64,000 nt of DNA from Candidatus Poribacteria bacterium (GCA_965242965.1 OZ251518.1:4736001-4800000), one strand, 5' to 3'; shown: positions 29,299 to 63,723, counted from the stretch's first letter. Translations and numbers: made by a program. Notes: a model not told the origin generated them from the sequence alone.

Positions 29299-30696
29299 AT
29301 GCCAAAACCTCACACGAACCTCCGCGAAATTGCACTAACTTGCCTGATGTCCATCTCGCAGACGCGAGCGTCGGTAGCCGCTGTCGTTGACAAGGCGTTC
29401 CGGAAACACGCGCTCAGCGGCCGCGAACGCCGATTCGTCAACGGGCTCGTTTACGGCGTTGTCCGATGGCAGAAGCATCTCGATTGGGTGCTGAACCACT
29501 ATATCAATCCGCGGTTTCAGTTGGACACGCGGCACCGCAACATTCTCCGCCTCGGCGCGTTTCAGTTGTTACACTTGGACGGTATCCCTGCGCACGCCGC
29601 GATTTTTGAGACTGTCCAACTCGCCAAAGGGACATCGGGACAGGGAGGCTCCGCCTACAAGCAGCGCGTCAGCAAAACAGCCGGGTTCATCAACGGCGTT
29701 TTGCGTTCTGTGCAGCGCAAGGCGCACAGGTTAACCTATCCGCGGCTTGGCGACAATCCTGTTGAACATATTTCCATCTCCCAGTCCTATCCGACATGGA
29801 TGGTGAAACGGTGGCTTGAGACGCGCGGGGTTTCGTGGACGCTGGAGTTCTGCCGAGCGAGCAATCAGGTTGCGCCGCTCTCCCTACGCGTCAATTCTCT
29901 CGTTACGCGACGCGAGGAACTTCGCGAATCGCTGGCGGCAAATGGCATCGCCACGCGCCTCTCCCAGGTTGCAACCGATGGGTTAATCCTTGATAACCTT
30001 GCGTCCTCAGCGAATGAGGACGCTTTAAAGGCGTTGCTCAATCGCGAAGACATCTATGTGCAAGACGAGAGCGCGATGCTCGTCGCGCCGCTCCTCGCAC
30101 CGGCAGAGATGCAACTCATCGTTGAAGTGTGTGCCGCACCGGGCGGCAAAACGACGCACCTCGCGCACCTGATGGGCAATGCGGGAAAAATTATCGCCGT
30201 AGATGTCTCCGACAAGCGACTCGCCGTGTTGCTAAAGAACTGCACCCGGGTCGGCGCGCTTAACGTTGAAACACTGGCACTTGATGCAACCCAGGCAGAC
30301 CTCGGGTTCATCGCCAACGCCGATGCAGTGCTGATTGATGTGCCGTGTTCGGGGTTTGGCACGCTGCGGCGGCACGCAGATATCCGATGGAACAGGACCG
30401 CCGAGCACCTCCGCATGCTCCGAGAAGTGCAATTGAATCTGCTGCGCAACGCCGCAATGCATCTGAAACGTGGCGGCGTGCTAGTATACAGCACTTGTAG
30501 TATTGAACCGCAGGAAAACGAGGATATCATCCATCGGTTTCTCGCAGAGTTCCCGATGTATACGGTAGAACACGCGCGGACATTCTTACCGCATCTCCCA
30601 CCAAACGCGCTAACGCCGGAAGGTTTCGTCCAGACGTTCCCGCATGAACATGGCGTTGATGGCGCGTTCGCCGCGCGCCTCCGCAAGAATGATTGA
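29299..30696 (+). CDS. rsmB: 16S rRNA m5C967 methyltransferase (NusB-like N domain)
   Basis: LRLGAFQL, VQDE, CAAPGGKT, DVPCSG, YSTCS. Confidence 0.92.
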   Translation: MPKPHTNLREIALTCLMSISQTRASVAAVVDKAFRKHALSGRERRFVNGLVYGVVRWQKHLDWVLNHYINPRFQLDTRHRNILRLGAFQLLHLDGIPAHAAIFETVQLAKGTSGQGGSAYKQRVSKTAGFINGVLRSVQRKAHRLTYPRLGDNPVEHISISQSYPTWMVKRWLETRGVSWTLEFCRASNQVAPLSLRVNSLVTRREELRESLAANGIATRLSQVATDGLILDNLASSANEDALKALLNREDIYVQDESAMLVAPLLAPAEMQLIVEVCAAPGGKTTHLAHLMGNAGKIIAVDVSDKRLAVLLKNCTRVGALNVETLALDATQADLGFIANADAVLIDVPCSGFGTLRRHADIRWNRTAEHLRMLREVQLNLLRNAAMHLKRGGVLVYSTCSIEPQENEDIIHRFLAEFPMYTVEHARTFLPHLPPNALTPEGFVQTFPHEHGVDGAFAARLRKND

Positions 30697-31288
30697 CTTC
30701 AATCTCTACGCTATCACCGACCGGCACCGCTGCGCGCCAACCGCGTTATTAGTCGTCATTTCGGAACTGCTAGACGCAGGCGTGCGAGCCATTCAATTGC
30801 GCGAAAAGGATTTAGACGCGCGCGCGTTGTCCCAATTGGCAAAACCGATAGCCGAACGGTGCCGACGTTACGATGCCGCTCTCTTCATCAACGGAAACGT
30901 CAAAGTTGCACAGGATGTTGGGGCGGCAGGGGTTCATCTGCCTGCGTCCGTAACAGCGCGCGTCAGCGAAACCTTACAAATCGGATGTTCCATCCACAAT
31001 TTTGACGAAGCGAAAAAACGGGAAGCAGAGGGTGCCGATTTCATCACCTACAGTCCCATCTACCGCACCGCCAGCAAACCGGGATATGGTCCCGCGGTCG
31101 GCGTAGCCAACCTTGCGCGGCTCGCAAAACAGATAACGGTTCCTATCTTCGCGCTTGGCGGCGTTACGCCAGAACGGGTTGCGGCGTGCATGGAGGCGGG
31201 TGCTGCTGGCATCGCTGTGATGTCAGGCGTGATGTCTCCCACCGGCGCGGGGGAACAAGCAAGACGGTATCTCAAGGCATTGCGTTAA
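30689..31288 (+). CDS. thiE: Thiamine-phosphate synthase / TenI family
   Basis: LYAITD, IQLREK, GVHL, SPIYRTASK, ALGGV. Confidence 0.8.
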   Translation: MIDFNLYAITDRHRCAPTALLVVISELLDAGVRAIQLREKDLDARALSQLAKPIAERCRRYDAALFINGNVKVAQDVGAAGVHLPASVTARVSETLQIGCSIHNFDEAKKREAEGADFITYSPIYRTASKPGYGPAVGVANLARLAKQITVPIFALGGVTPERVAACMEAGAAGIAVMSGVMSPTGAGEQARRYLKALR

Positions 31289-31300
31289 AACATTTTTTGC

Positions 31301-31329
31301 TTGCAAACTCGCGCGTTTTGTGGTATCCT
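31301..31329 (+). promoter_or_regulatory. sigma70 promoter at the island's left edge
   Basis: TTGCAA-17-TATCCT with extended TG. Confidence 0.55.
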
Positions 31330-31342
31330 ATAATTACATGAA

Positions 31343-31795
31343 GATGTTTCATATTTCGATGCGTTCGGTAGGAGAGCCCTCCGGGTCTTGATTTCTTCCC
31401 GTAGCGCGGGGGCCTGTCCCCCGCGAGCGTTGAATTCCGCGTGCACGCACGCTGGCGAGGGACAGGCCCTCGCCCTACGGTAACGCACGCCGTTTTTTCG
31501 GACGCATCGTTTTAGGTCCTACGGACCTGAAGAGAATAAGAGACGTTTTTCCCGTAGCGCGGACAATGGCGAGGGACAGGCCCTCGCCCTACGGTGAAGT
31601 GCCGTTTTTTTTCGTAGTGCGGGGGCCTGTCCCCCGCGATCGTTGGATTGCGCGGACGATGGCGAGGGGAACCCGCTCGCAGGCGCGTGTGGAAACCTGC
31701 AAGGGCCCACTACGATGAAGGGGGGCTTTCTGCCGCCGCGGCCCCGGTAGGCGCGCCGCCCTATTGCATCGAGACCCGGAGGTCTTTCCTACGGG
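31343..31795. repeat. REP cluster beginning with a single MITE-type end
   Basis: GATGTTTCATATTTCGATG followed by multiple REPs. Confidence 0.8.
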
Positions 31796-31887
31796 ACAGG
31801 TGATTCTCCGCAAGGCACATGGGAAATTACCCATAAGGGACGGGAGTCTCTGAAAATCCGATAACCCGTAATAGGGAGGGAAAATCC

Positions 31888-32385
31888 ATGGACATGATTT
31901 CACTCACGCATCAGGTGACACCACCCGAATTTTCCGAGTTGTCGCTCCCAGCGCGAAAATTAGGCTCCGAATTGCAACACCGAGTTGACGAAGTGAACAA
32001 TCCGATATTGGAGAACCTGAACCTCGTTGACTTAGCAAAAGCCGCAAACCTGACGCACCTGCAGGCAGTCAACGCGCTACAGGAACTCAACGAAGTCGAA
32101 CTCATTTCTGTTGAAAACTACAACGGTTACAACGGGTTCGCCGGCAGAGACATGCATAACCTGAAATTGGAGTTTGACGTAATCACCTTTGTCATTTACG
32201 ACGCGCTGTGCGAAAAAGAGCAAGCGCATCAGTGGCAGGAGATTCAAACCCTTTTCAAGGACAATTCCAAGACCGGGGAAGATCTCTACAGATACCTACG
32301 CGAACACTATCATCGCGACATTGTTTACCTCGTCGAGTATTACCGCGTCTTGACGTGGGAGAAACCGCGCCGGCGCGAGTGGTAG
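31888..32385 (+). CDS. Hypothetical protein (possible HTH segment)
   Basis: GGAGG RBS; LVDLAKAANLTHLQAVNALQEL resembles a wHTH. Confidence 0.6.
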   Translation: MDMISLTHQVTPPEFSELSLPARKLGSELQHRVDEVNNPILENLNLVDLAKAANLTHLQAVNALQELNEVELISVENYNGYNGFAGRDMHNLKLEFDVITFVIYDALCEKEQAHQWQEIQTLFKDNSKTGEDLYRYLREHYHRDIVYLVEYYRVLTWEKPRRREW

Positions 32386-32410
32386 ACTTCGTCAAGGAAG
32401 GGAATCGAAA

Positions 32411-32833
32411 ATGGACATCCGAAAGATGACAGATGCCGAAGTCTATGAACGCGGGCTTGAAGTGCTTTTGAAGGAACTGGGCCCCGATGAAATGCCCCGC
32501 TTCCTCCAACAGTGCAAACCGCGCACCTACGATTACACCGCAACGCGGCAGCAATCGCTAAAAAATGAGGAACTTGACACAATTGTCAATTGTATCCGAC
32601 AGGAAGAATTGGAGAGACAAGCCGAAGAACAGGTGAAGGCACACCGCATCACCGCATGGCGCAATAACTCGGCGGAACTTACCGAACTGGAACGCTTTGA
32701 AATCGGGCATAAAGCACTTGTGGCGAAGTTGGGACTCTCCGGAACATGGACGTTTTTACGCACCATTTTGAGCACGGAAACCACGGTGATTCCGCCGATG
32801 CTAAGCCATCTCCACCCGAATCCGAGTTGGTGA
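32411..32833 (+). CDS. Antitoxin-like protein with internally duplicated domain (possible 3' frameshift)
   Basis: ERGLEVLLKELGPDEMPRFLQQ...DYT followed by EIGHKALVAKLGLSGTWTFL. Confidence 0.6.
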   Translation: MDIRKMTDAEVYERGLEVLLKELGPDEMPRFLQQCKPRTYDYTATRQQSLKNEELDTIVNCIRQEELERQAEEQVKAHRITAWRNNSAELTELERFEIGHKALVAKLGLSGTWTFLRTILSTETTVIPPMLSHLHPNPSW

Positions 32834-32932
32834 GTCCTCCACGGCAACAGGTATCCTAGCACCGCGCCGACTCTCTAAAACGGCAAACCGCGAAGATTGA
32901 GGCTGAAACGAAATCTAGCGTTCGTTTTTTCC

Positions 32933-33125
32933 TTGTAATTTTATGCATTTTATGGTATCCTATTAAGACCGGTTCGTGAACGTTCTTTCAACACTCGGAC
33001 CGGCCGAAGCGCAACTCCGCATCGGTAAGAAACGACGCGCCGCTTACCCGCGCGTCAACCCCCGCAACTCAACGATGGAGGCAGTCAACTTGCAGAAGCA
33101 GACGCTGCAACTCCGGAGAGTTTAT
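32933..33125 (+). promoter_or_regulatory. Promoter plus conserved structured leader, copy 1
   Basis: TTGTAA-17-TATCCT followed by a ~155-nt leader near-identical to 36016-36171. Confidence 0.7.
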
Positions 33126-33166
33126 GCAGCCCGTTCAGGGCACGCAATCGCTGATACAAAGAGGAA

Positions 33167-35464
33167 ATGATGCTCAAAGAGACTATCGATCACATTTTCG
33201 AGTTCACGGAAACTCTGACATCCAACGATTCTAACAAAGCCGTAACCAAGCATTTTGTCGTTTTACCTATCCTCCGCGACTTGGAATGGAACTGCGACAA
33301 TCTGGAGAACTTAGAGGTTTTTCCAGACAAAAGCACCGAAAGCGGCACCGTTGACTACGCCTTACAACACGATGGAAAATCGCGCGTATTCATTGTGGTT
33401 AAACGCTGGCCCACAGAACTCGACCCTGATGAACTTTACGATGAAACCGCCCTTTACGCTTCTCAAGAAGAGGTTGATTTTGTCGTTCTCACCAACGGCA
33501 AGACATGGGACTTCTATCTGCCTAATCTACCAGACGTTCCATGGGAAACGAGAAGGTTTTGCTCCATCGATCTTGACAACGAGAATGAGGCAGTCTCCGA
33601 TTTTCAGAAATATCTGTCCAAATCTCATGTTCTGGATGCCAGCGCAAGAGAGGCGGCAGAAGCGATTGTCAAAAAACCGGAAAAACCTACCTCCGAAGAA
33701 CTACTCCGCGATGTCCGGAAGATAATCAGGAAAATTGAGGACAAATCCACCAGCGGCGACTATATCTTCCGCGGCGAACCTGAATGCTATCCGAAAGTCT
33801 CCTCAGCTCTTTACCGCCAATACGAAGAAATTCCGATAGATGGATCCAATGTCGAAGATTTCCAAGATAAGATGCTAATCGCGGCGCAAGAGCATCTCCC
33901 CGGAACAACCAGCGACTCTGAAACCCCAGTAAGGAAACCAGACGACTCTTTTGAGACCTTAACCGAACTCCAACACTACGGGGGTAAAACGAACCTCATC
34001 GACTTTACGACCGATTCTCGTGTAGCACTTTTCTTCGCCTGCGACGGTTCGCCCGGCAAGAAGGGGAGGGTTATCCTACGGAAAAGAGGGGACAGAGAAG
34101 ATCTCGTTGAAAACCCGCGCGAACCGAGCAACCCCCTTAATCGTGTCATCGCTCAGAAGAGCATATTCGTTCGACCTCGCCAAGGCTGCGTTGAATTCAA
34201 TCAAAACAAGGATGTTGTTGAGATTCCGGCAGACCTCAAGAAGCCTATGCTGGAATACCTGCAAAAGTATCACAACATTTCTGCGAAAACTATCTATAAC
34301 GACCTGTATGGATTCATCAGAACACAGGATATCCATCTCAGGGCCTACAAAGAACTTTACAGAGGTTTTTCTGCAGCGGATAAAGATGATCTGGACAAGG
34401 CCATCCGGCACTATAACAAGGCGATAGAACTTAAACCCGATTTTTTCGGAGCCTATAACGACCGCGGTATTGCTTATGGCAAAAAGGGCGACTTTGACAG
34501 TGCTATCAAAGACCTTAACAAGGCAATTGAACTCAACCCTAATCTCGCCGAGGCGTATAACAACCGCGGCCTCTCTTACCTCCAAAAAGGCGAGATTGAT
34601 ACCGCCATTCACAACTACAGCAAGGCAATTGAACTCAACCCTAATCTCGCCGAGGCATATAACAACCTTGGCACTGCTTACCTCCAAACAGGCGAACTTG
34701 ACAACGCCATTCACAACTACAGCAAGGCAATTGAACTCAAACCCAATCGCGTCAAAGTCTATAACAACCGCGGCAAAGCCTATGCAGGAAAAGGTGAGTT
34801 TGACAACGCTATCGCAGATTTTAACAAGGCAATCAAACTCAATCCTGTTGATGCCGAAGCCTATTACAATCGTGGTAACGCTTACGCCCAAAAAGGCGAA
34901 CTTGACAACGCCATCAAAGACTTTACCAAAACAATCGAACTCAATCCCGATTTTTTCGGAACCTATAACAACCGCGGTGTTGCTCATAGCGAAAAGGGCG
35001 AATTTGACAAAGCCATCCAGAACTATGACAAGGCGATAGAACTCCATCCTGTTTACGCCGAAGCCTATTACAACCGCGGCATTGCTTATGACACAAAGGG
35101 CGAATTTGACAAAGCCATCCAGAACTATGACAAGGCGATAGAACTCCATCCCGTTTACGCCGAAGCCTATTACAACCGCGGCACTACTTACTTCCAAAAA
35201 GACGAGGTTGACAACGCTATCAAAGACTTTACCACGGCGATAGAACTCAAACCCGATTCTGCCATTGCCTATTGCAACCGCGGCGAAGCGTGGATGCACC
35301 GCCGCGAATGGGACAAAGCCAAAGCAGACCTAACCGTTGCCAAAAACATGGCTTACAATATCATCGTCTCATTTCAGAGCGATTATGAAAACGTCGCGGA
35401 CTTTGAAGAGAAAAACGGCGTTACGGTGCCACCAGACATCAAGGCAATGCTGACCCCGGCGTAG
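33167..35464 (+). CDS. HsdR_N-like (degenerate) + FRG domain + ~9-10 TPR protein
   Basis: VDYAL..IVVKR, VLTNGKTW; YIFRGE, LQHYGGKTNLIDFT, ALFFAC; repeated AYxNRG TPRs. Confidence 0.85.
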   Translation: MMLKETIDHIFEFTETLTSNDSNKAVTKHFVVLPILRDLEWNCDNLENLEVFPDKSTESGTVDYALQHDGKSRVFIVVKRWPTELDPDELYDETALYASQEEVDFVVLTNGKTWDFYLPNLPDVPWETRRFCSIDLDNENEAVSDFQKYLSKSHVLDASAREAAEAIVKKPEKPTSEELLRDVRKIIRKIEDKSTSGDYIFRGEPECYPKVSSALYRQYEEIPIDGSNVEDFQDKMLIAAQEHLPGTTSDSETPVRKPDDSFETLTELQHYGGKTNLIDFTTDSRVALFFACDGSPGKKGRVILRKRGDREDLVENPREPSNPLNRVIAQKSIFVRPRQGCVEFNQNKDVVEIPADLKKPMLEYLQKYHNISAKTIYNDLYGFIRTQDIHLRAYKELYRGFSAADKDDLDKAIRHYNKAIELKPDFFGAYNDRGIAYGKKGDFDSAIKDLNKAIELNPNLAEAYNNRGLSYLQKGEIDTAIHNYSKAIELNPNLAEAYNNLGTAYLQTGELDNAIHNYSKAIELKPNRVKVYNNRGKAYAGKGEFDNAIADFNKAIKLNPVDAEAYYNRGNAYAQKGELDNAIKDFTKTIELNPDFFGTYNNRGVAHSEKGEFDKAIQNYDKAIELHPVYAEAYYNRGIAYDTKGEFDKAIQNYDKAIELHPVYAEAYYNRGTTYFQKDEVDNAIKDFTTAIELKPDSAIAYCNRGEAWMHRREWDKAKADLTVAKNMAYNIIVSFQSDYENVADFEEKNGVTVPPDIKAMLTPA

Positions 35465-35545
35465 GTGCAACCTCCGAAATCTGTCACTTCCCGAATGCGC
35501 AACGCTTTTTTCTTGGCACAAATCGCTTCTTAAGGCTAAATTAAC

Positions 35546-35950
35546 GGGGGTGTTTCATATTTCGATGTGTTCGGTAGGAGAGCCCGCCAGGTCTTGATGT
35601 CTTCTCGGTAGGAGAGACCTCTGGTCTCGATTTTCCCGTAGGGCTTTTCTCTGCCCGTAGCGCGGGGGCCTGTCCCCCGCGATCTCCATCGTCAAGAGGG
35701 GCGTTTTAGGTCCTTAATAAAAACACGCGCGGCCCTGGCAAAGACTATTAAGGACCTAAAGGACCTTAGCGTTCTTCGCAGGCGCGCGGGCTATAGACAT
35801 TAAGGTCCTACGGACCTAAGAGAACCAGAGACGTTTTTCCCGTAGCGCGGACAATGGCGAGGGACAGGCCCTCGCCCTACGATGAAGGGGGGCAGCCCTA
35901 TTGCATCGAGACCAGGAGGTCTCTCCTACGGGGATTTATGAAACCCCCTC
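35546..35950. mobile_element. MITE-like element with REP cargo
   Basis: GGGGGTGTTTCATA...TATGAAACCCCCTC. Confidence 0.65.
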
Positions 35951-35976
35951 AAATTAACGTCATCTTCACATTTTTC

Positions 35977-36171
35977 TTGCAAAGTTTTGCATTTTATGGT
36001 ATTCTATGTTTAACACTGGTTCGTGAACGTTCGCTCAACACTCGGACCGGCCGAAGCGCAACACCGCATCGGTAAGAAACGACGCGCCGTTCGACCGCGC
36101 GTCAACACCCGTAACTCAACGATGGAGGCAGTCAACTTGCAGAAGAAGACACTGCAACTCCGGAGAGTTTA
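35977..36171 (+). promoter_or_regulatory. Promoter plus conserved structured leader, copy 2
   Basis: TTGCAA-17-TATTCT; leader paralogous to copy 1. Confidence 0.7.
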
Positions 36172-36223
36172 TTCGTATTGTCCCTATTAGGGACACATTT
36201 TTGACTATCACTGAAGAGAGAAG

Positions 36224-37585
36224 ATGAACACGCAACAACCAGACGAACTCAACCGCGTGCTGGAAAAGATCTGTGAGATAGCTGAGAAATCGGCTAGCGG
36301 TGACTACGTCTACCGCGGCGAACCTGCCTGCTATTCTAAAGTCTCCTCAACCCTCTATCGCGAATACGAGGAAGAAATTGACGAGGAGAGTTTTGAGATA
36401 GATGTCGTCCAAGAAGAAATTCTAGGCGAGGCGAGAAAGTATACCCGCGAAACAGCCGATGATTTGGAGATTTTGACAGAACTTCAACACCACGGCGGGA
36501 AAACCAACCTGATCGATTTTACGACTGACTACCTCATTGCTCTTTTCTTTTCATGTGATGGAGAGCATGCCCAAGCCGGCCGGGTTATCTTGCTAGAAAA
36601 GGAATCGGCCGACTACAAGGTCGAAAAACCGCCGAAGACGATTAATCGCGTGGAGTCCCAGAAAAGCATATTCGTGCAAGCATCCGAAGGGTTTGTTGAA
36701 CCGGACGAGGTAGTAACTGTTCCCCAAGACCTTAAGCAGGCTATGCTAAACTATCTGCGGAAGCATCACGACATCTCCACCGAAACTATCTACAACGACT
36801 TGCATGGATTTATCACGAACCGGAGTATCCATGAAAGTGCCTACACGCTGTTTCATAAAGGGATGACCTGTCAAAATCGAGGAGATTCAGCGAAAACGCG
36901 GGCAAAAAAACAGGTGTGGTATGATAAAGCCGTGGGCCATTATACCGAAGCTTTGGAACAGAAACCTGATTTTCACGAGGCCTATAACAATCGCGGTGCT
37001 GCTTACAAGGAAAAAGGTGAACTTGATAACGCGATTCAAGACTTTACCACGGTGATAAAACTCAATCCCGTTTACGCTAAAGCCTATAACAACCGCGGTG
37101 CTGCTTACCTTGAAAAAGGCGAACTTGACAGCGCTATCAATGACTTAACCACGGCGATAGAACTCAATCCTGATTACGCCACAGCCTATTACAACAGCGG
37201 CACTGCTTACCTCCAAAAAGGCGAACTTGACAACGCTATCAATGACTTAACCACGGCGATAGAACTTAAACCCGATTCTGCCAATGCCTATAACAACCGC
37301 GGTGTTGCTCATAGCGAAAAGGACGAATTTGACAAGGCCATCCAGAACTTTGACAAAGCGATCCAATTCAAACCCGATGATGCCACAGCCTATAGCAATC
37401 GCGGCAAAGTGTGGATGCATTTAGGCAAATGGAACAAAGCCAAAGCAGACCTAACCGTTGCCAAGGACAGCGGCGTGGATATCATCGCCTCCTTTCAGAT
37501 CGATTATGAAAGCGTCGCGGACTTTGAGAAGAAAAACGGCGTTACGGTGCCAGCAGACCTCGCGGTGATGCTAACCTCTGAGTAG
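36224..37585 (+). CDS. FRG domain + ~5-6 TPR protein
   Basis: YVYRGE, LQHHGGKTNLIDFT, ALFFSC, SQKSIF; TPRs. Confidence 0.85.
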   Translation: MNTQQPDELNRVLEKICEIAEKSASGDYVYRGEPACYSKVSSTLYREYEEEIDEESFEIDVVQEEILGEARKYTRETADDLEILTELQHHGGKTNLIDFTTDYLIALFFSCDGEHAQAGRVILLEKESADYKVEKPPKTINRVESQKSIFVQASEGFVEPDEVVTVPQDLKQAMLNYLRKHHDISTETIYNDLHGFITNRSIHESAYTLFHKGMTCQNRGDSAKTRAKKQVWYDKAVGHYTEALEQKPDFHEAYNNRGAAYKEKGELDNAIQDFTTVIKLNPVYAKAYNNRGAAYLEKGELDSAINDLTTAIELNPDYATAYYNSGTAYLQKGELDNAINDLTTAIELKPDSANAYNNRGVAHSEKDEFDKAIQNFDKAIQFKPDDATAYSNRGKVWMHLGKWNKAKADLTVAKDSGVDIIASFQIDYESVADFEKKNGVTVPADLAVMLTSE

Positions 37586-37630
37586 GTTCAACCTCCAAAA
37601 TCGTCTTTTCCAGATTGTTAGGATTTCTCG

Positions 37631-37751
37631 TTGCAAATTTACGCAGTTTGTGGTATCCTATCAAGGGTTCGTGAACGTTCGCTGCCGAAAGGAGCGGAGA
37701 CTTCTCGGACCCGCCAAAGTGCATTACTGCACGCGCAACGGAGGAAAGAAG
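37631..37751 (+). promoter_or_regulatory. Promoter plus diverged leader, copy 3
   Basis: TTGCAA-17-TATCCT; GGGTTCGTGAACGTTC...TCGGACCC. Confidence 0.6.
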
Positions 37752-38546
37752 ATGAACATACAACAAGACCGGATTGACACGGTGCAAGAAATCGTCACTC
37801 GCGGTTTCAATTACCTAGACCAAGGCCATCTGGACAAGGCTGTCGCGCTCTTCACTACCGTGATAGATCTTGAACCGGACCGGGCCGTAGTTTATCACTA
37901 TCGAGGCGAAGCCTACTACACTCAAGGCGCATTTGACAATGCCATCAGCGATTTTAGCAAGGCGATAGCAATTGAGTCCGACTTTGCCGAAGCCTATAGC
38001 AATCGCGGTATGGCTTACGAGGCTAAAGGTGAACTTGACCTGGCCATCCAAGACTATAATACGGGGATAAGACTGAACCCCCATGAGACATTAGCCTATT
38101 ACCATCGTGCCAGGTTCTACAGTTTCGGTGAGGAAGAGGAAATCGCACTTGACCTGGCCATCCAAGACTATAACATGGCGATAAAATTGGATCGCTATTT
38201 TGTCAACGCCTATCACAATCGCGGGCTGAGTTACTTGATGCTAGAAGACTTTGACCGAGCCGTCGAAGACTTTGACATGGCAATAAAGTTGAATCCAAAT
38301 CTCGTCAATGCCTATAAAGGTCGCGGTATGGCTTACACCTTCATGGAAAAGTTTGAGCATGCTGTCAATGACTATAGCAAGGCAATAGAACTCGATCCTG
38401 ATGATGCTGAAACCTATCGCGATCGCGGCAAAGCATGGATGCACCTTAGCAAATGGGAAAAAGCCGCAGCCGACTTGATTGCGGCCGGTGAAATCCCTCC
38501 TGAAGATGTCGTCGCTGCCTTGAGTGCTTCGGAATCTGAGTCGTAA
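37752..38546 (+). CDS. Stand-alone TPR protein (~7 repeats)
   Basis: GGAGG RBS; TPRs and the WMHL-KW cap shared with the paralogs. Confidence 0.85.
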   Translation: MNIQQDRIDTVQEIVTRGFNYLDQGHLDKAVALFTTVIDLEPDRAVVYHYRGEAYYTQGAFDNAISDFSKAIAIESDFAEAYSNRGMAYEAKGELDLAIQDYNTGIRLNPHETLAYYHRARFYSFGEEEEIALDLAIQDYNMAIKLDRYFVNAYHNRGLSYLMLEDFDRAVEDFDMAIKLNPNLVNAYKGRGMAYTFMEKFEHAVNDYSKAIELDPDDAETYRDRGKAWMHLSKWEKAAADLIAAGEIPPEDVVAALSASESES

Positions 38547-38640
38547 GACAACCTTGAAGATTCGGGAAATAGATCGGAAATGTTGACGAGGCAGTAGCCC
38601 GAAACTGGGAATGACCGATTCCGAACTCGCTCATTTTTTC

Positions 38641-38670
38641 TTGACATTACGTTGTTTTTTATGGTATACT
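38641..38670 (+). promoter_or_regulatory. Promoter of the R-M operon
   Basis: TTGACA-18-TATACT. Confidence 0.65.
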
Positions 38671-38743
38671 AATTCCATACGAAACTTACGCGAAAACCGT
38701 CTTGGATTTCCATCTGAGACGTTAACATGACGGAGTCCAACTC

Positions 38744-40057
38744 ATGTCGCCGAATGAAATTTTTGACTGGTTTAACCAAACACCCATTGATAAGACCTGG
38801 TCATTTGACGGATGCAAACCGTCAGACACAGGGAAATGGACGCACGGGTACCATCGCTACCCCGCCAAGTTTATTCCTCAACTTGTTGAGCGTCTGATCG
38901 ATACCTACATATCCAACGGGTCCGCTCACGTAAACGATCCGTTTATGGGATGTGGCACAACTGTTGTCACTGCGATATCCAGAGGGTTTCAAGCGAGCGG
39001 CACGGACATTAACAAAGTCGCTCATTTGGTAACCCAAACGAAAGCGTCCCCGATCCAACCCGACTATCTTGACAAAAAAGTTAAGCAATTTTTGTCACGA
39101 ATTTGTCCGCTCGGTGAAGGGCAGAGTTTTTTCGGCACACGCCAGGTCTGCCCCCAAATTCCAGATAAACATCTGGAACGGATTGACTATTGGTTTACAG
39201 AAGAAACGCGTGATGAAATGGGGAAAATCCTAAACGTGATTCTGGACGAAACGGATCAAGCGGTTCGGTGTTTCCTTCTCGTAGCGTTTAGTCACGTTCT
39301 CAAAACCTGTTCGATTTGGAGCCAAGGGAGCACCAAACCGACGCGCGATTTGAGGAAACGGCCGACACTTCCGTACGATGCGATCAAACGGCACCTCACC
39401 AAGATGCTAAAGGGAAACACGCATTTTTATCAAGTCGTGCCATCTCATGTGCGAGACCTGTTGGATGGTTATCTAAACGTCCACGTGGGCTCCGCCGAAA
39501 GACAATCTGTACCCGATGATAGCGTTGATCTGATCGTCAGTTCAAGTCCTTACGTGACAAGTTACGAATATGCCGATCTACATCAACTGTCAACGATCTG
39601 GTTGGATTTAGCCGATGACCTGAAAGAATACAGAAAACAGTTCATTGGAACGTCCTACAAGCACTACGATGACAAACCGCTGCGGAGTCAAATCGCCTCC
39701 GAGATTGTCTCCCAAATGGTGCCCCAAAGTAGGAAAAAAGCGAAAGAAATTGAAGCCTTCTTCATCGACATGCAGGAGGTGTTCAATGAGAGTTTTAGAA
39801 TCCTGAAACCGGGGGGCAGATGTTGCTACGTCATTGGCAACACGAAGCTCAAAGGTGTTGAAATCCTCAACGCCGAAGCCTTCGCGGAGTCCCTGCAATA
39901 CTCAGGCTTCAAACTCGATCGGCTCATTAAGCGGGAAATCCCCTTGAAAATTCTCCCCCAGAAACGGGATGAAAAAACTGGGAGATTTGCCAGTAAGGAT
40001 AAAGCCGACTCCGAAGCGTACCCAACAGAGTATGTCGTGATTGGGTTAAAGGAGTAG
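38744..40057 (+). CDS. DNA methyltransferase (probably N4-cytosine) of a type II R-M system
   Basis: HRYPAKFIPQL, DPFMGCGTT (motif I), SSPY (SPPY-like motif IV). Confidence 0.9.
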   Translation: MSPNEIFDWFNQTPIDKTWSFDGCKPSDTGKWTHGYHRYPAKFIPQLVERLIDTYISNGSAHVNDPFMGCGTTVVTAISRGFQASGTDINKVAHLVTQTKASPIQPDYLDKKVKQFLSRICPLGEGQSFFGTRQVCPQIPDKHLERIDYWFTEETRDEMGKILNVILDETDQAVRCFLLVAFSHVLKTCSIWSQGSTKPTRDLRKRPTLPYDAIKRHLTKMLKGNTHFYQVVPSHVRDLLDGYLNVHVGSAERQSVPDDSVDLIVSSSPYVTSYEYADLHQLSTIWLDLADDLKEYRKQFIGTSYKHYDDKPLRSQIASEIVSQMVPQSRKKAKEIEAFFIDMQEVFNESFRILKPGGRCCYVIGNTKLKGVEILNAEAFAESLQYSGFKLDRLIKREIPLKILPQKRDEKTGRFASKDKADSEAYPTEYVVIGLKE

Positions 40058-40063
40058 GGAATC

Positions 40064-40762
40064 ATGAATTTTGAAGACCTGAAAAATATGTACTCGGCGG
40101 CGCAGTTAAGCGAAGGCGCGGAAGCCTATCGGTCTGTTTCCCAACTCTTGCAGGATGCCAAGGGACAGCATAAGCAAGATTTTTTGAGGGCTAAGCCGCA
40201 CGGAGACCACGAACAGAGCTGGCGTGCCTTTAAGGGCAAAAACTTTGAGAAATTGATTCGACACATTATCACGGACTCAATTGAAGCCCTCGGAATGAAG
40301 GTAATCGACGGTAATAAATTGGAGAAGAGCAAAAGCGTAAACCTGTCGCAGGAATTAAGCCAAGTGAAGCGAAATTTGGCAATTGATTACGGCGAGTTTG
40401 GTTTGCATCTCCCCGACGTTGATATTGTCGTCTACAACCCTAAAAATTGCAGGGTTATCGCTTTAATCTCCAGCAAAGTCACGTTGAGAGAACGGATTGC
40501 CCAGACAGGCTACTGGAAACTCAAATTGCTGGAAGATAAAACTACCGCTAACATCAAGGTCTATTTTATCACGCCTGACGAAGATGGAACCTTGACGAGC
40601 GCATATCTTCCCAAGAAAGGACGAGCGATTGTTGAGGTCGACCTTGATGGCACCTATGTCCTAACCGAGGCATCGCTTGAGCAGAGTGACAAGGTTAAAC
40701 TGTTTGAGCATTTCATTGATGATTTCAGGCAGTTAATCGAAGAGAGCAAGGCATCTTTATGA
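40064..40762 (+). CDS. Type II restriction endonuclease, BsaWI-like
   Basis: QSWRAFKGKNFE, PDVD, SSKVTLRERIAQ resemble the PDxD...KxxxRER core of CCGG-family REases; adjacent to the MTase. Confidence 0.75.
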   Translation: MNFEDLKNMYSAAQLSEGAEAYRSVSQLLQDAKGQHKQDFLRAKPHGDHEQSWRAFKGKNFEKLIRHIITDSIEALGMKVIDGNKLEKSKSVNLSQELSQVKRNLAIDYGEFGLHLPDVDIVVYNPKNCRVIALISSKVTLRERIAQTGYWKLKLLEDKTTANIKVYFITPDEDGTLTSAYLPKKGRAIVEVDLDGTYVLTEASLEQSDKVKLFEHFIDDFRQLIEESKASL

Positions 40763-40869
40763 AACTTGCTGGTGGCGCGTAGTCCGACGAAGGCTATAAG
40801 CCCCTCACTGAAAAACGGAGTGTTAGGCATCAGAGCAACCGCGCCTAACGAAAGAAAAGGAGGATTCGC

Positions 40870-41457
40870 GTGTCAAAACCAACGGTTAGGGGACTTGTTA
40901 TGGAGTTCTTTGAAAATCACCCCAACCAAGAGATCCCGCACGCTCTTGTCTTGGCTTGGGTGGATCCAAAGTATGAGGAAGCGCACGGCCGCCGCCCTCT
41001 TGATACACGGCGAAGAATCAGAGATCTCTGTAAGGAAAACAAACTCACTAAGATTCGTGACGGTGTCTACAAATATGACCCGAATCGTGCCCAAGGTGTC
41101 AAGTTGCGAGGTTTCTCAGAAACTACAAAGAGAGACGCATTGGAACGAGATAACTACCAATGTGTTCTCTGTGGCCGCGGGCGCGAAGATGGGATTACCC
41201 TCACCGTAGACCACATCATTCCAAGGGATAATGACGGCCCCAACACCCTTGAAAACGCTCAAACGCTCTGTTCTCAACACAATCTGCTCAAGAAGAACTA
41301 CTCCCAAACCGAAGCCGGGAAACGGTACTTCATCAGAATGCATGAAACCGCGGTTGCCAATCAGGACGAGAAGATGATAGCGTTCTGCCGAGCGGTTTTC
41401 GATGCTTACGATGAATACGAAGTGGACTTCCACATCCCGCGACCGGACAGGGACTAA
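40870..41457 (+). CDS. HNH endonuclease with N-terminal wHTH-like region
   Basis: RDNYQCVLC...VDHIIP...NAQTLCSQHN; GGAGGA RBS, GTG start. Confidence 0.85.
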   Translation: MSKPTVRGLVMEFFENHPNQEIPHALVLAWVDPKYEEAHGRRPLDTRRRIRDLCKENKLTKIRDGVYKYDPNRAQGVKLRGFSETTKRDALERDNYQCVLCGRGREDGITLTVDHIIPRDNDGPNTLENAQTLCSQHNLLKKNYSQTEAGKRYFIRMHETAVANQDEKMIAFCRAVFDAYDEYEVDFHIPRPDRD

Positions 41458-41501
41458 GCGAATCTCAAGCCACCAAACGTTTGGCTACAAGCGGTTCAGA
41501 T

Positions 41502-41795
41502 ATGAACGTGAAGAAAGACAGGAAACCCTCTCAGCCAGAGCTCAAGTTCCGCGCGCTTTTGGATAAAATATCCGAGCGGACAGGCGAAGGAAGAGGCAAT
41601 TACGCTGTGGACCGGCACCAGCAACCAATGCCGGATATTGATACTATCTTGAAGGAAGCGGAACTGTTAGAGAAAACTGAACAGGCATCTTCAAGTCTTG
41701 TTGAACCGGTATTGCAAGCAACGGCTCAGAGAAAGCGCGTAATCCGAACGCGGACAGCCGATGCGTTGTGTTCCGAGCGCAGTTTCCAGAAATGA
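41502..41795 (+). CDS. Small hypothetical protein or remnant
   Basis: Only ORF filling the gap; no motif recognised. Confidence 0.3.
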   Translation: MNVKKDRKPSQPELKFRALLDKISERTGEGRGNYAVDRHQQPMPDIDTILKEAELLEKTEQASSSLVEPVLQATAQRKRVIRTRTADALCSERSFQK

Positions 41796-41806
41796 CAGTG
41801 CAAAAC

Positions 41807-42595
41807 ATGAAACAAATCTTAACCATCGCAGGTTCAGACTCCGGCGGCGGTGCCGGCATACAGGCGGACATTAAAGCCATCTCCGCAAACGGCGGATTCG
41901 CAATGTCCGCGATAACCTCTGTCACGGCGCAGAATACGGTGGCGGTGACGAGCGCGTTCGATCTGCCGATTTCGCTCATTGAGGCGCAACTGGATGCAGT
42001 CTTCACCGACTTTGAGGTGGCAAGCGTCAAGACCGGGATGCTTTCTTCATCGGAGATTGTGGCGGCGGTATCGCAGAAGTTGCGTGAATACGCGCCGCCT
42101 GCCATCGTCGTAGATCCGGTGATGATCTCCAAGAGTCGGTTTCCTTTGTTGAAAGAAGAGGCGATTGCGAGTCTTAAGGCGGAATTGATTCCGCTTGCCA
42201 CGCTCATCACGCCGAACGTCTACGAGGCGGAATTGCTGGCGCGACGGGAGATCCAGACTACGGATGATGCCAAAGCCGCGGCGCAGGTTATTGCGGCGTT
42301 GGGATGCGAGGCGGTGCTGGTAAAAGGCGGGCATCTCGGCGGCGCGCAGGCAACGGATGTGCTTTATTTCGGCGGCGAGTGGCACTTTTTCGAGGCGGAA
42401 CGCATTGATACGCAGAATACGCACGGCACGGGTTGCACCTATTCCGCCGCCATCGCGACGCAACTCGCGCACGGCAAGGAACTTACGGAGGCGATCCGCG
42501 CGGCGAAGGCGTATATTACAAACGCCATCCGCCACGCGCTGGACATCGGACATGGGCATGGCCCAACGAATCATTTTTATTCCCTCGCGCGATAA
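41807..42595 (+). CDS. thiD: HMP/HMP-P kinase
   Basis: LTIAGSDSGGGAGIQADIK, VVDPVM, THGTGCT. Confidence 0.95.
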   Translation: MKQILTIAGSDSGGGAGIQADIKAISANGGFAMSAITSVTAQNTVAVTSAFDLPISLIEAQLDAVFTDFEVASVKTGMLSSSEIVAAVSQKLREYAPPAIVVDPVMISKSRFPLLKEEAIASLKAELIPLATLITPNVYEAELLARREIQTTDDAKAAAQVIAALGCEAVLVKGGHLGGAQATDVLYFGGEWHFFEAERIDTQNTHGTGCTYSAAIATQLAHGKELTEAIRAAKAYITNAIRHALDIGHGHGPTNHFYSLAR

Positions 42596-62433: not shown

Positions 62434-63723
62434 ATGCTGAAACGTATCAAAATTCAGGGGTTCAAATCCCTTGCAAATGTTGAAGTGAATCTGGACCCGC
62501 TCGCGGTGCTCATCGGCCCGAATGCATCAGGTAAAAGTAATTTCCTCGATGCCTTACAACTGCTCTCCCGGATAACCACTTGCCGGACGTTAAAAGAGGC
62601 ATTTGATTTGCCACACCGAGGGTACCCCCTAGAGTCATTCACTTTTGGACCAGAAGGCATCAAGAACCTGTTGGAACGCGAGACAGTGGCGTTCACTCTC
62701 GAAGTTGATGTTCAGTTATCCCCCCAAATCGTTGAAACCGTCAATCGACGCATTCAAGAAAGGGTGAAAAATAAATCTGTCTCAAAGCAATTCGTGCGTG
62801 AGCAGCATCTGCGGTATCGCATCGAGATTGAAATGCTCCCCAAACTCGGTATTTTGCAGGTAGCAGACGAATATCTCGCTGCACTGAATGCCAAAGGCGA
62901 GGTGAGTCGGAGACGGAAGCCGTTCTTGGAACAGATTGACGGCCAACTGCGTTTGCGGATGGAGGGACAGGCGCATCCACTCTACTATGAGCCGCATCTT
63001 GACTACAGTATTCTTTCCATGTCGCATTATCCGCCGCACTATCCACATGTCGTGGCGATGCAGGAAGAATTGGCGAACTGGTTCACCTACTACTTTGAAC
63101 CCCGAGAGCGAATGCGGATTCCGAATCCTGTCAAGGAGGTCGACCACGTTGGGGTGATGGGGGAAGACCTTGCGGCGTTTCTCAACACCTTACGGGCCCT
63201 CAACGAACCTCAGTTCAAGGCGGTTGAAAAATCGCTGCACGCCATTATCCCATCAATAACAGGGATTGATGTCAGTGTCAATAAGTTGGGCCAAGTTGAG
63301 TTGGATCTTCGTGAAGGCGAAAAATTCGTCTCCACTCGAATCGTATCGGAAGGCACGCTCCGCATTTTAGGGCTTTTAGCACTCAGCGGGGCAAAAAAGC
63401 CGCCGGTGCTCGTCGGGTTTGAAGAACCGGAAAACGGCATCCATCCGCGCCGCATTCAACGGATTGCTCGGCTTTTGGAAACCCGCAGAATTCTCCAAGA
63501 TACCCAATTCATCGTCACGACGCATTCACCGCTTTTGCCGGATCTCGTTCCTATTGACTCTGTATACCTCTGTCGCAAAGTGAACGGGACTACGGAGATT
63601 GAACCTTTTACAAAAACGCATGTGGGGGAGCTTTGGAAGGCACGGGAAATTCAGACAGCGTTGGATGCCGAAGATGATTTGGCTATTTCCGGACGTATCG
63701 TGAGGGGAGATTTTGATGCGTAA
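62434..63723 (+). CDS. AAA_21/ABC-type ATPase
   Basis: QGFKSL, GPNASGKSN, SEGTLR, EEPENGIHP, TTHSP. Confidence 0.9.
   Translation: MLKRIKIQGFKSLANVEVNLDPLAVLIGPNASGKSNFLDALQLLSRITTCRTLKEAFDLPHRGYPLESFTFGPEGIKNLLERETVAFTLEVDVQLSPQIVETVNRRIQERVKNKSVSKQFVREQHLRYRIEIEMLPKLGILQVADEYLAALNAKGEVSRRRKPFLEQIDGQLRLRMEGQAHPLYYEPHLDYSILSMSHYPPHYPHVVAMQEELANWFTYYFEPRERMRIPNPVKEVDHVGVMGEDLAAFLNTLRALNEPQFKAVEKSLHAIIPSITGIDVSVNKLGQVELDLREGEKFVSTRIVSEGTLRILGLLALSGAKKPPVLVGFEEPENGIHPRRIQRIARLLETRRILQDTQFIVTTHSPLLPDLVPIDSVYLCRKVNGTTEIEPFTKTHVGELWKAREIQTALDAEDDLAISGRIVRGDFDA

Follow-up and report, generated by a model that had tools for sequence, protein, structure and literature searches.

A promoter-linked family of structured RNA leaders in front of defence genes in a Candidatus Poribacteria lineage

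To our knowledge, little is understood of the way in which bacteria keep their numerous defence systems, which are often toxic, coordinated and in check, and the defence regulators described to date are proteins encoded beside single systems. A 64,000-nucleotide (nt) stretch of the 5.7 Mb genome of Candidatus Poribacteria bacterium, a sponge symbiont (C1:4736001-4800000, hereafter the window), raises the question whether an RNA element might serve such a purpose. In this window, three genes for tetratricopeptide repeat (TPR) proteins each follow an equivalent promoter and a similar leader, which an earlier note on the same DNA had read as an undescribed cis-regulatory RNA or RNA antitoxin that controls putative defence effectors. 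Our analysis identifies the three leaders as members of a real, undescribed and lineage-restricted family of structured leaders. Together with its conserved sigma-70-type promoter, the leader would make up a portable expression cassette. In this genus it is placed before some 20 unrelated anti-phage genes or operons in each genome, which suggests a single shared RNA element as the switch of many immune systems.

A family of modular RNA leaders

Alignment of the three copies (32900-33175, 35955-36230 and 37590-37760) gave a common promoter layout consisting of TTGYAA, a 17-nt spacer and a TG-extended TATYCT. The copies also share the invariant 15-mer GGTTCGTGAACGTTC, whose exact sequence occurs three times in the window, always at a leader site, and the 3′ strand CTCGGACC. 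The promoters and stems that the earlier note had named were all recovered in place, and the stems are reproduced by minimum-free-energy folds. The outer stem P1 pairs CCGGTTCG (32969-32976) with CGGACCGG (32996-33003) in copy 1 and CTGGTTCG (36016-36023) with CGGACCGG (36043-36050) in copy 2. The leader promoters match 8 of the 12 hexamer positions, marginally below the threshold of a simple sigma-70 scan, in which they are consequently not listed, and are thus inferred from their conservation; the layout of copy 1 is kept in about 20 copies of the symbiont genome. A regular-expression census, whose spacing missed the leader promoters, found TG-extended consensus promoters to be frequent in this genome.

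The earlier note had proposed a covariance-model search across genomes. We searched the symbiont genome with blastn and iterated nhmmer, which yielded about 20 copies of promoter plus leader, and then built covariance models of the two conserved modules, R1 for module B and R2 for module A. R1 found 15 matches with E<1e-16 and R2 found 17, the union being 21 loci of which 11 carry both modules, six module A only (copy 3 included) and four module B only. Since the family was retrieved by covariance models with its pairing kept, the three window copies are more than a chance resemblance. The caveat of the earlier note that recent duplication alone might explain the conservation does apply to copies 1 and 2, which are 89% identical over 202 nt and remain similar for about 150 nt past the shared part. 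It does not apply to the family, as its leaders, 90-450 nt in length, are 60-75% identical while the genes behind them are unrelated.

Further copies were present in close relatives. In G108, a sister genome of the same genus, R1 gave 12 matches at E<=0.01, 11 of these at E<=1.2e-11, and R2 gave 14. Among 151 genomes of the phylum, for each of which R1 scored 25 candidates under strict filters, the other 149 were without an R1 match. In the same sample, R2 recognized the symbiont genome, G108 and G061, a genome of another genus with two diverged copies, besides three weak single matches. An exact-pattern scan of species-representative genomes added at least six loci in the metagenome-assembled genome 'Candidatus Poribacteria bacterium isolate AGPOR5'. 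As a G061 copy combines module A with a diverged module B (AGGUAGUCAAC...GUGCAAC) that R1 did not detect, the leader probably ranges more widely than found here. Viral contigs contained no match to the pattern of either module. A loose pattern retrieved at least 118 stretches from metagenomes, and none of the 80 loci examined matched R1. A pattern match in Thermoanaerobaculales (L076) did not reach E<=0.01 with R1 and was taken as chance. In a comparison of orthologous loci, for which the G108 loci were shortened upstream, leader identity was 85-91% versus 78-93% for the coding sequences. The leader is thus about as conserved as the coding sequence and carries no extra conservation signal between orthologues, the conservation of these loci beginning abruptly at the promoter.

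The leader is modular, with module A located by the predicted 5′ end, followed by a variable hairpin and then by module B. Module A has the layout GGGUUCG-UGAACGG-YCGC-loop-GCGGC-ACU-CGGACCC, in which P1, an internal loop and the inner stem P2 follow each other; copy 1 has lost P2, and its module A starts at or a few nt from the predicted 5′ end. Module B comprises the hairpin P3 (GACGCG/CGCGUC) and the helices P4 (AACUC/GAGUU), P5 (GGAG/CUCC) and P6 (GCAGU/RCUGC) around an invariant CAACUUG and a variable insert. Copy 3 is without module B and leads directly into the ribosome-binding site.

To quantify the pairing, we aligned 35 copies of module B from three genomes and 40 copies of module A, drawn from three or four genomes in all; both alignments were fitted to the models and contain kindred sequences, so that the following figures lean towards structure. 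Standard pairs filled 92.3% of the module B cells versus 27-44% with slid partners, and 91.3% of the module A cells versus 24-51%. Changes on both sides were found in 7 of the 20 pairs of module B (17 cells) and in 5 of the 11 pairs of module A, and for either module none of 500 shuffles reached the covariation score, a control that overstates the support because all sequences belong to one narrow lineage and are related by duplication. Examples are P5, where GGAG/CUCC is exchanged for AGAG/CUCU and GGCG/CGCC, and P4 with two pairs changed on both sides. These data agree with the claim of the earlier note that an undescribed structured leader with conserved stems and some compensatory change is present. 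A check against Rfam, likewise proposed there, returned no family at any threshold tried: the whole window had no match in Rfam 15 at gathering score, the region 32800-37900 at E<=10 nothing but a chance miRNA match, and eight further loci with full-length leaders at E<=1 nothing but an unrelated, sub-threshold L31 match.

Module B contains a second potential pairing. An alternative helix of 6 bp (UUGCAG/CUGCAA) is paired in 97.5% of the cells with two compensatory cells, compared with 97.1% paired cells for P6. Since CUGC can pair either in this helix or in P6, the two conformations of module B exclude each other, and the use of the common strands in two pairings would explain their invariance. 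In the GmrSD leader, the alternative helix is lengthened to 8 bp and represents the minimum-energy fold. The words UUCGU and GUUCGUGA, which are identical to the 5′ strand of the module A P1, recur directly 3′ of module B in many copies (window 36166-36175, L035:395-405, L039:436-446) and could represent a second recognition site or a competitor for the 3′ strand of P1.

The same invariant sequences might be read as DNA operators, the blocks GTTCGTGAAC, CACTCGGAC and GGAGGCAGTCAACTTG being bound, immediately behind the promoter, by a transcription factor acting as repressor of a defence regulon. The blocks are indeed invariant on both strands of the presumed helices, a short GTTC..GAAC dyad lies beside the +1 position, and phage anti-defence operons are known to have regulators which recognize a 5′-untranslated-region (UTR) repeat as DNA as well as RNA (PMC13551039). 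However, variants with GGGUUCGUGCCGG lose the dyad and keep the RNA pairing, extended by GCGC/GCGC, the roughly 200 nt of conserved, hairpin-rich sequence far exceed an operator, and the compensatory changes in P2, P3, P4 and P5 would be meaningless for a duplex DNA site. We therefore regard DNA operators as a very unlikely explanation of the conserved blocks.

A coding function was also considered. The upstream open reading frame (uORF) that the earlier note had pointed out, with a stop codon overlapping the start of the FRG-TPR gene, is present in copy 1, and it is not conserved across the family, so that the overlap is an idiosyncrasy of this copy. An invariant TTG is found in 33 of 35 aligned module B copies; the frame that it opens crosses CTGCAA in frame 0, 1 or 2 and extends from one codon (TTG-TAG, four copies) to 124 codons. 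A conserved leader peptide or regulatory uORF was rejected because neither frame nor length is kept, and small proteins encoded by the leaders themselves (open reading frames (ORFs) 32976-33170 and 36023-36190) were rejected since the family contains indels of lengths not divisible by three.

A long-range helix of 16-19 bp, termed P0, closes the leaders of one sub-family, whose promoters are of the TATAAT type. In two leaders, the P0 arms, TAAAGUUUGGACAAUUU and AAAUUGUCCAAAGUUUA, have lengths of 17 and 19 nt, a separation of 301-350 nt and a complementarity of 94-95%. The P0 arms of the GmrSD and LRR leaders differ by a compensatory exchange of U-A for C-G, and all five arm differences among three TmtA orthologues are G-U compatible on the sense strand. 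When the two ends of a leader were folded with each other as a duplex, P0 received support for the TmtA (z -2.5) and LRR (z -2.3) leaders only, the result being, GmrSD aside, uninformative elsewhere.

Additional elements were observed around this helix. Module C (UUGAUGCAAAUUGUCYAAACUUU) lies 20-40 nt ahead of the start codon (L034:440-480, L039:555-585, L040:6695-6725, L031 genome 154550-154575, L033 genome 4395355-4395380) and forms the 3′ arm of P0 in three or four leaders. No 5′ partner for it was found in the NOV_C/TmtA leader, and module C may also have a role of its own. Module D (GGUUGGUUUCUUUGC...) is an imperfect hairpin of 23 nt between modules B and C of the GmrSD and LRR leaders (L040 genome ~442330-442400; L039:470-523). 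At the PLD-SNF2 locus, a tRNA-like sequence lies upstream of the promoter that belongs to the leader, and its 3′ end directly adjoins the 5′ arm of P0 (TAAAGTTTGGGCAATTTG). This sequence (C1:155100-155200, minus strand, outside L031) was recognized as tRNA-like by eye from its T-arm GGTTCAAATCC and anticodon loop TTCGTAA, and the P0 arm could double there as an island attachment site.

Genes behind the leader

All 21 loci of the symbiont genome and all 15 G108 loci examined are co-oriented with the next ORF. For 20 of the 21 symbiont loci, the distance to the start of this ORF does not exceed about 250 nt. One copy lacks a gene, the next promoter-leader unit coming after it. This orphan copy (genome 4565473-) precedes two more promoters and the leader of a MORC-like gene. 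Complete leaders in tandem were seen at L030:10100-10900 (genome 4564700-4565480), L119 and L077, and in G108 and AGPOR5 two full leaders with both modules stand ahead of one C5-methylase gene.

The orientation bears on the possibility that the leader is a selfish or neutral repeat, for example an element resembling a miniature inverted-repeat transposable element (MITE), a promoter cassette spread with defence islands or a recombination handle, which folds without any regulatory role. Several features fit such a repeat: palindromes resembling repetitive extragenic palindromic (REP) units at window 35560-35950, inverted repeats of 17-19 bp that flank three or four leaders in the fashion of a MITE, the abrupt onset of conservation at the promoter between orthologous loci, the clustering of leaders in islands, with three within 4 kb at one locus, and the copy lacking a gene. 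Yet a repeat of this kind would not be expected directly upstream of an ORF in sense orientation at 21 of 21 loci. Moreover, most copies are without inverted arms (present in only 3-4 of the 21 loci), no target-site duplication was seen by eye beside these arms, compensatory and wobble changes keep the helices only on the sense RNA strand, and copies of 60-75% identity must be old, yet specific blocks are invariant. On this evidence a selfish or neutral repeat is unlikely.

The genes behind the leader, identified by Pfam and PADLOC, are mostly defence genes and include PDC-S15 (FRG-TPR), Ssp and the cyclic oligonucleotide-based anti-phage signalling system (CBASS), Pbe, Tiamat, Dsr1, GmrSD and restriction-modification. 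In the symbiont genome, the leaders stand ahead of the two FRG-TPR genes and the TPR gene with its methylase and restriction enzyme (Table 1); SspD (4e-116) with an HNH protein, a CBASS cyclase (3e-107) and a patatin effector (5e-105); PbeA (5e-246) with PbeC (3e-130); a MORC-like HATPase with an unknown protein of 370 amino acids (aa); HKD-Snf2 (1e-64); two HSDR_N/N6_Mtase/Eco57I enzymes of the type I/IIG methylase-restriction kind (1e-281, 8e-286); two TmtA proteins (3e-194, 3e-106); an HSDR_N-tubulin protein with an XPB-type helicase; a STAND NTPase with AAA-HEPN; an NsnB/AriA-like ATPase (3e-44); GmrSD (1.5e-89); Dsr1 (2.5e-209), followed by an HNH-PIN protein; a Sel1-trypsin protein; and a 73-aa ORF followed by a Gp49/antidote toxin-antitoxin pair. 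G108, AGPOR5 and G061 carry leaders ahead of orthologues of some of these genes, and further cargo in the relatives consists of HerA with a TGT/DpdA-like protein, a DrmMII-type C5 methylase with HATPase, CARF-HEPN (1e-121), ParB-like proteins and DruF. The fusion of HSDR_N to Tubulin_2 (3e-44; L035:447-3047 and L120:297-2591) is followed by an unknown ORF of 217 aa and the helicase, which is of the XPB/ERCC3 type, and this cluster is a candidate for an undescribed defence module.

For comparison, the first genes of 19 of the 21 loci were submitted to PADLOC together with a control of 33 ORFs of >=200 aa that lie in the window outside the island and hence represent a local set rather than a random genome sample. 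At E<=1e-5, matches were obtained for 16 of the 19 first genes versus 8 of the 33 controls, several of the latter being generic ATPases or methylases, and at E<=1e-30 for 10 of 19 versus 2 of 33. The view that the FRG-TPR genes are putative defence effectors finds a counterpart in their match to the candidate family PDC-S15. The leader does precede the three TPR genes as the earlier note had said, and it is not specific to them, since the 21 loci lie before many unrelated defence systems.

This range of genes also bears on the second proposal of that note, an RNA antitoxin, or more generally a discrete small RNA whose released form would neutralize the protein encoded behind it. The orphan copy without an ORF would suit such an RNA, and cleavage by RNase III at P0 could set the leader free. 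However, there are no tandem repeats of the ToxI type, each gene having one leader or at most two complete leaders in tandem, and the heterogeneous cargo comprises harmless methyltransferases, ATPases, helicases and multi-gene systems under their own control. Binding of 20 unrelated proteins by one and the same RNA sequence is improbable, and we consider a small RNA or antitoxin highly improbable.

In the window itself, the three copies lie in a defence island of about 10 kb (31300-41760) inserted between thiE (30644-31288) and thiD (41768-42595). It contains two unknown ORFs, two FRG-TPR genes, the TPR gene, a type II restriction-modification pair with an N6/N4 methylase and a BsaWI-type enzyme, an HNH protein and a promoter-only copy. 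The latter precedes the two unknown ORFs at the left edge, neither of which has a Pfam match. REP-like palindromes, e.g. GGTAGGAGAGACCTCTGGTCTCG and CCCGTAGCGCGGGGGCCTGTCCCCCGCG, fill the spacer at 35520-35960 between the first FRG-TPR gene and leader 2, and similar units interrupt other leaders, for instance in the gap between promoter and module A of the GmrSD leader. The features are compiled in Table 1.

Table 1. Leader-associated features and genes of the island, in window coordinates
Feature	Position	Strand	Description
Promoter-only copy	31294..31332	+	nhmmer match 4767294-4767332, model positions 1-38; no leader modules
Promoter, copy 1	32933..32961	+	-35 TTGTAA 32933-32938, 17-nt spacer, TG-extended -10 TATCCT 32956-32961; T-rich tract upstream
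Module A, copy 1	32969..33003	+	P1 CCGGUUCG/CGGACCGG, 19-nt loop with UGAACG...CACU; R2 45.2 bits, E 9e-13
Variable hairpin, copy 1 ('P2' of the earlier note)	33004..33025	+	CCGA-GCG...CGC-UCGG, seen in fold; length and sequence differ across the family
Module B, copy 1	33032..33125	+	R1 92 bits, E 1.8e-23; seen in fold
P3, copy 1	33034-33056	+	GACGCGC/GCGCGUC
P4, copy 1	33066-33070 and 33118-33122	+	AACUC/GAGUU
P5, copy 1	33077-33080 and 33111-33114	+	GGAG/CUCC
P6, copy 1	33081-33085 and 33104-33108	+	GCAGU/GCUGC
Competing helix, copy 1	33090-33095 and 33105-33110	+	UUGCAG/CUGCAA
uORF, copy 1	33090..33170	+	TTG start, 26 codons; TGA overlaps the FRG-TPR ATG at 33167
FRG-TPR gene 1	33167..35464	+	765 aa; Pfam FRG 3e-12 and TPR; PADLOC PDC-S15 1.9e-16
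Promoter, copy 2	35977..36005	+	TTGCAA, 17 nt, TATTCT
Module A, copy 2	36016..36050	+	P1 CUGGUUCG/CGGACCGG, one U-G wobble; R2 52.7 bits; seen in fold
Module B, copy 2	36079..36172	+	R1 90.5 bits, E 4.9e-23; seen in fold
Terminator-like hairpin between leader 2 and gene	36179..36205	+	UGUCCCUAUUAGGGACA, then CAUUUUUGAC
FRG-TPR gene 2	36224..37585	+	453 aa; PADLOC PDC-S15 8.8e-18
Promoter, copy 3	37631..37659	+	TTGCAA, 17 nt, TATCCT
Module A, copy 3	37665..37712	+	P1 GGGUUCG (37665-37671)/CGGACCC (37706-37712); inner P2 GAAA-capped; R2 49.5 bits
Hairpin, copy 3	37719..37732	+	GUGCA-UUAC-UGCAC; fold leaves Shine-Dalgarno GGAGGA 37740-37745 unpaired
TPR-only gene	37752..38546	+	264 aa
N6/N4 DNA methylase	38744-40057		Downstream of the TPR-only gene
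BsaWI-type restriction enzyme	40064-40762		After the N6/N4 methylase

Possible mode of action

How could one leader serve so many genes? We consider it somewhat probable that promoter and structured 5′ leader constitute a cis-acting regulatory leader of a defence regulon, in which the leader RNA would act in cis and after initiation as the common control point. The short copies have 5-10 nt between the -10 box and P1, and their module A begins 0-10 nt from the predicted transcription start, so that it would be a 5′-terminal hairpin. Hairpins at this position are known to protect mRNAs from 5′-end-dependent decay. Module A may thus serve as a stabilizing and recognition hairpin, specific recognition being suggested by its invariant internal loop UGAACGG/CACU. 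In module B, an invariant GGAGG-N8-UUG, of which GGAGG is Shine-Dalgarno-like, is sequestered in P5 and P6. Within the reading as a cis-acting leader we tentatively propose a conformational switch set by a factor, in which module B would toggle between P6 (GCAGU:RCUGC) and the alternative UUGYRG:CUGCAA, the position of the switch being most likely determined by a shared trans-acting factor, protein or RNA, rather than by a metabolite. The outcome would be an altered life-time or processing of the mRNA or an altered read-through into the defence gene, in a direction that the proposal does not fix, and P0 is a candidate processing site for RNase III.

Several observations weigh against the cis-acting leader, in addition to the kinship of the aligned sequences and the local PADLOC control mentioned above. 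Transcription of the leader, its start and its processing are predictions from the DNA sequence; the sequencing data found to cover 32800-38600 were five sets of DNA or unspecified kind from two studies, with no RNA set among them. With z-scores of -0.9, -1.5 and -1.8 versus shuffles for copies 1 to 3, which are weak values, the folding stability of these copies is not exceptional in itself. Most compensatory cells lie in the P3 hairpin and P6 varies by wobbles alone; the key helices hardly differ in sequence between copies, which keeps the covariation modest. The genes behind the leader in the symbiont genome do not all belong to defence, a small SNase and, as a clear exception, an exported LRR-dockerin protein with a secretion tail being without a PADLOC match. 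Conversely, an AriA/GajA-like defence-type ATPase at 62434-63723 (PADLOC HEC-01A, 6e-58) is without a leader, so that not all defence genes of this genome use the cassette. No candidate trans-acting factor was found. Specifically, the 36, 24 and 14 neighbouring proteins scanned contained no helix-turn-helix (HTH) or ribbon-helix-helix (RHH) regulator except for a ParB-type HTH in one G108 operon, a scan that did not extend to distant regulators in the genome. Furthermore, the folds of the three copies do not visibly mask the Shine-Dalgarno sequences of the real genes, and no expression platform is evident since terminator-like hairpins, none of which overlaps module B, follow only some copies (among them copy 2 and the PLD-SNF2 leader). 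Because the true ribosome-binding sites are free and such hairpins are confined to some copies, control by the leader most likely acts on mRNA stability, processing or read-through.

The hairpins and the position of module A are relevant for an alternative in which the leader mediates RNA-only processive antitermination in the manner of put of HK022 or EAR. The leader would then bind the elongating polymerase and allow horizontally acquired defence genes to be read through Rho-dependent and intrinsic termination. Besides the location of module A 0-10 nt from the predicted start in short copies, this idea would account for the terminator-like hairpins between leader and gene in copy 2 and the PLD-SNF2 leader, the former of which also occurs in orthologous or paralogous FRG-TPR leaders of two other genomes. 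Terminator-like sites as such are not enriched in the region over shuffles (12 vs 9.5). The idea would also suit the long, foreign-looking genes and operons in the cargo and a portable cassette that needs no adjacent regulator gene and no specialized NusG paralogue, a six-frame search of the symbiont genome having returned a single PF02357 match. However, most copies are without a recognizable terminator behind the leader, Rfam reported no similarity to put or EAR, and many cargo units are single genes. Antitermination thus appears at least as unlikely as the selfish repeat. Antitermination of the ops/RfaH or LoaP type was rejected with the finding of only one NusG; no weight is given to a likeness between GGAGGCAG and ops.

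The two mutually exclusive helices could also belong to a riboswitch for a metabolite or nucleotide that senses an infection or stress signal and turns on many defence systems at once. In line with such a function, the invariant nucleotides are mostly located in junctions and loops (CAACUUG; UGAACGG/CACU) and the stems tolerate change, with core stems that hardly vary within this one lineage, closure by P0 gives an autonomous domain, and complete leaders in tandem precede one gene in two genomes. Against it stand the lack of an expression platform that would link the switch to a terminator or the real ribosome-binding site, the separability of the modules (A alone at six loci, B alone at four), which is unusual for one aptamer, a narrow phyletic range that is atypical of metabolite riboswitches, and a cargo giving no hint of a ligand. 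We hold a riboswitch to be quite unlikely.

The cis-acting leader may be taken one step further, to an infection-responsive RNA switch that places about 20 unrelated immune systems under one RNA-level command, an 'immune regulon'. This extension is rather doubtful. The switch would sense either a small molecule that signals alarm or the disappearance of a host factor inhibited by the phage, such as an RNase or RNA-binding protein, which would normally keep the mRNAs down through module A or P0. Upon infection, restriction-modification, CBASS, Ssp/Pbe, Tiamat, Dsr1, GmrSD, the STAND NTPase and FRG-TPR would be released from repression together. Since the cassette is portable, newly acquired defence genes would join the regulon by landing behind it.

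What is notable irrespective of the mechanism is that one conserved folded leader, accompanied by its promoter, precedes about 20 different systems of a single genome, including candidate (PDC-S15) as well as well-known ones (CBASS, Ssp/Pbe, Tiamat, Dsr1, restriction-modification and GmrSD). If the regulatory reading is true, this would constitute an RNA-level regulon of immunity. In practical terms, the leader would be a marker in this lineage, as genes behind it are strong candidates for new defence genes, for instance those of the HSDR_N-tubulin and Sel1-trypsin proteins and of the 370-aa protein that accompanies the MORC-like ATPase. Moreover, it would be a compact element that can be tested with reporters although its host is an uncultured sponge symbiont.

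Comparison with known leaders and defence regulators

In the literature searched, which did not extend to bioRxiv and PMC supplements, we found no description of a leader shared by defence systems. The motif name 'Poribacteria-1' occurs in no searchable paper and has no corresponding Rfam match. Known elements were compared for their individual features. As commonly described, put of HK022 and EAR of Bacillales are structured RNAs right after the promoter that act in cis on their own transcript and have no adjacent protein gene, all of which resembles the leader. They regulate phage late genes or polysaccharide operons, whereas the leader heads defence genes, has terminators behind some copies only and is without an Rfam match.

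Multi-hairpin 5′ UTRs before many genes of one genome are also familiar from ROSE-type leaders and STAB-SD stabilizers, e.g. the cryIIIA leader. Like them, the leader has a GGAGG that resembles a Shine-Dalgarno sequence but stands far ahead of the true start codon, as well as a 5′-proximal hairpin that could protect the mRNA; however, its GGAGG is itself paired, unlike in these systems. ROSE masks the true ribosome-binding site of functionally uniform heat-shock genes, while the leader leaves the true site free and its cargo is heterogeneous. The leader belongs to neither group. A common regulator among diverse defence systems is likewise a feature of the WYL, BrxR and CapW-type factors of defence islands, yet these are DNA-binding proteins encoded beside the systems, in contrast to an RNA structure within the transcripts.

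The functionally nearest likeness is offered by phage anti-defence operons, for which structured, Aca-like 5′-UTR motifs bound by proteins are described (PMC13551039); the leader would be an analogue and not a member of this group. Both are conserved structured 5′-UTR motifs right behind the promoter of several operons of the conflict between phages and bacteria, and the phage motifs act through a trans-acting factor that recognizes RNA, as we propose for the leader. The phage motifs are short, belong to the phage side and come with a co-encoded HTH or RHH regulator, whereas the leader, next to which no regulator was seen, extends over 90-450 nt, is modular and serves about 20 systems on the side of the host.

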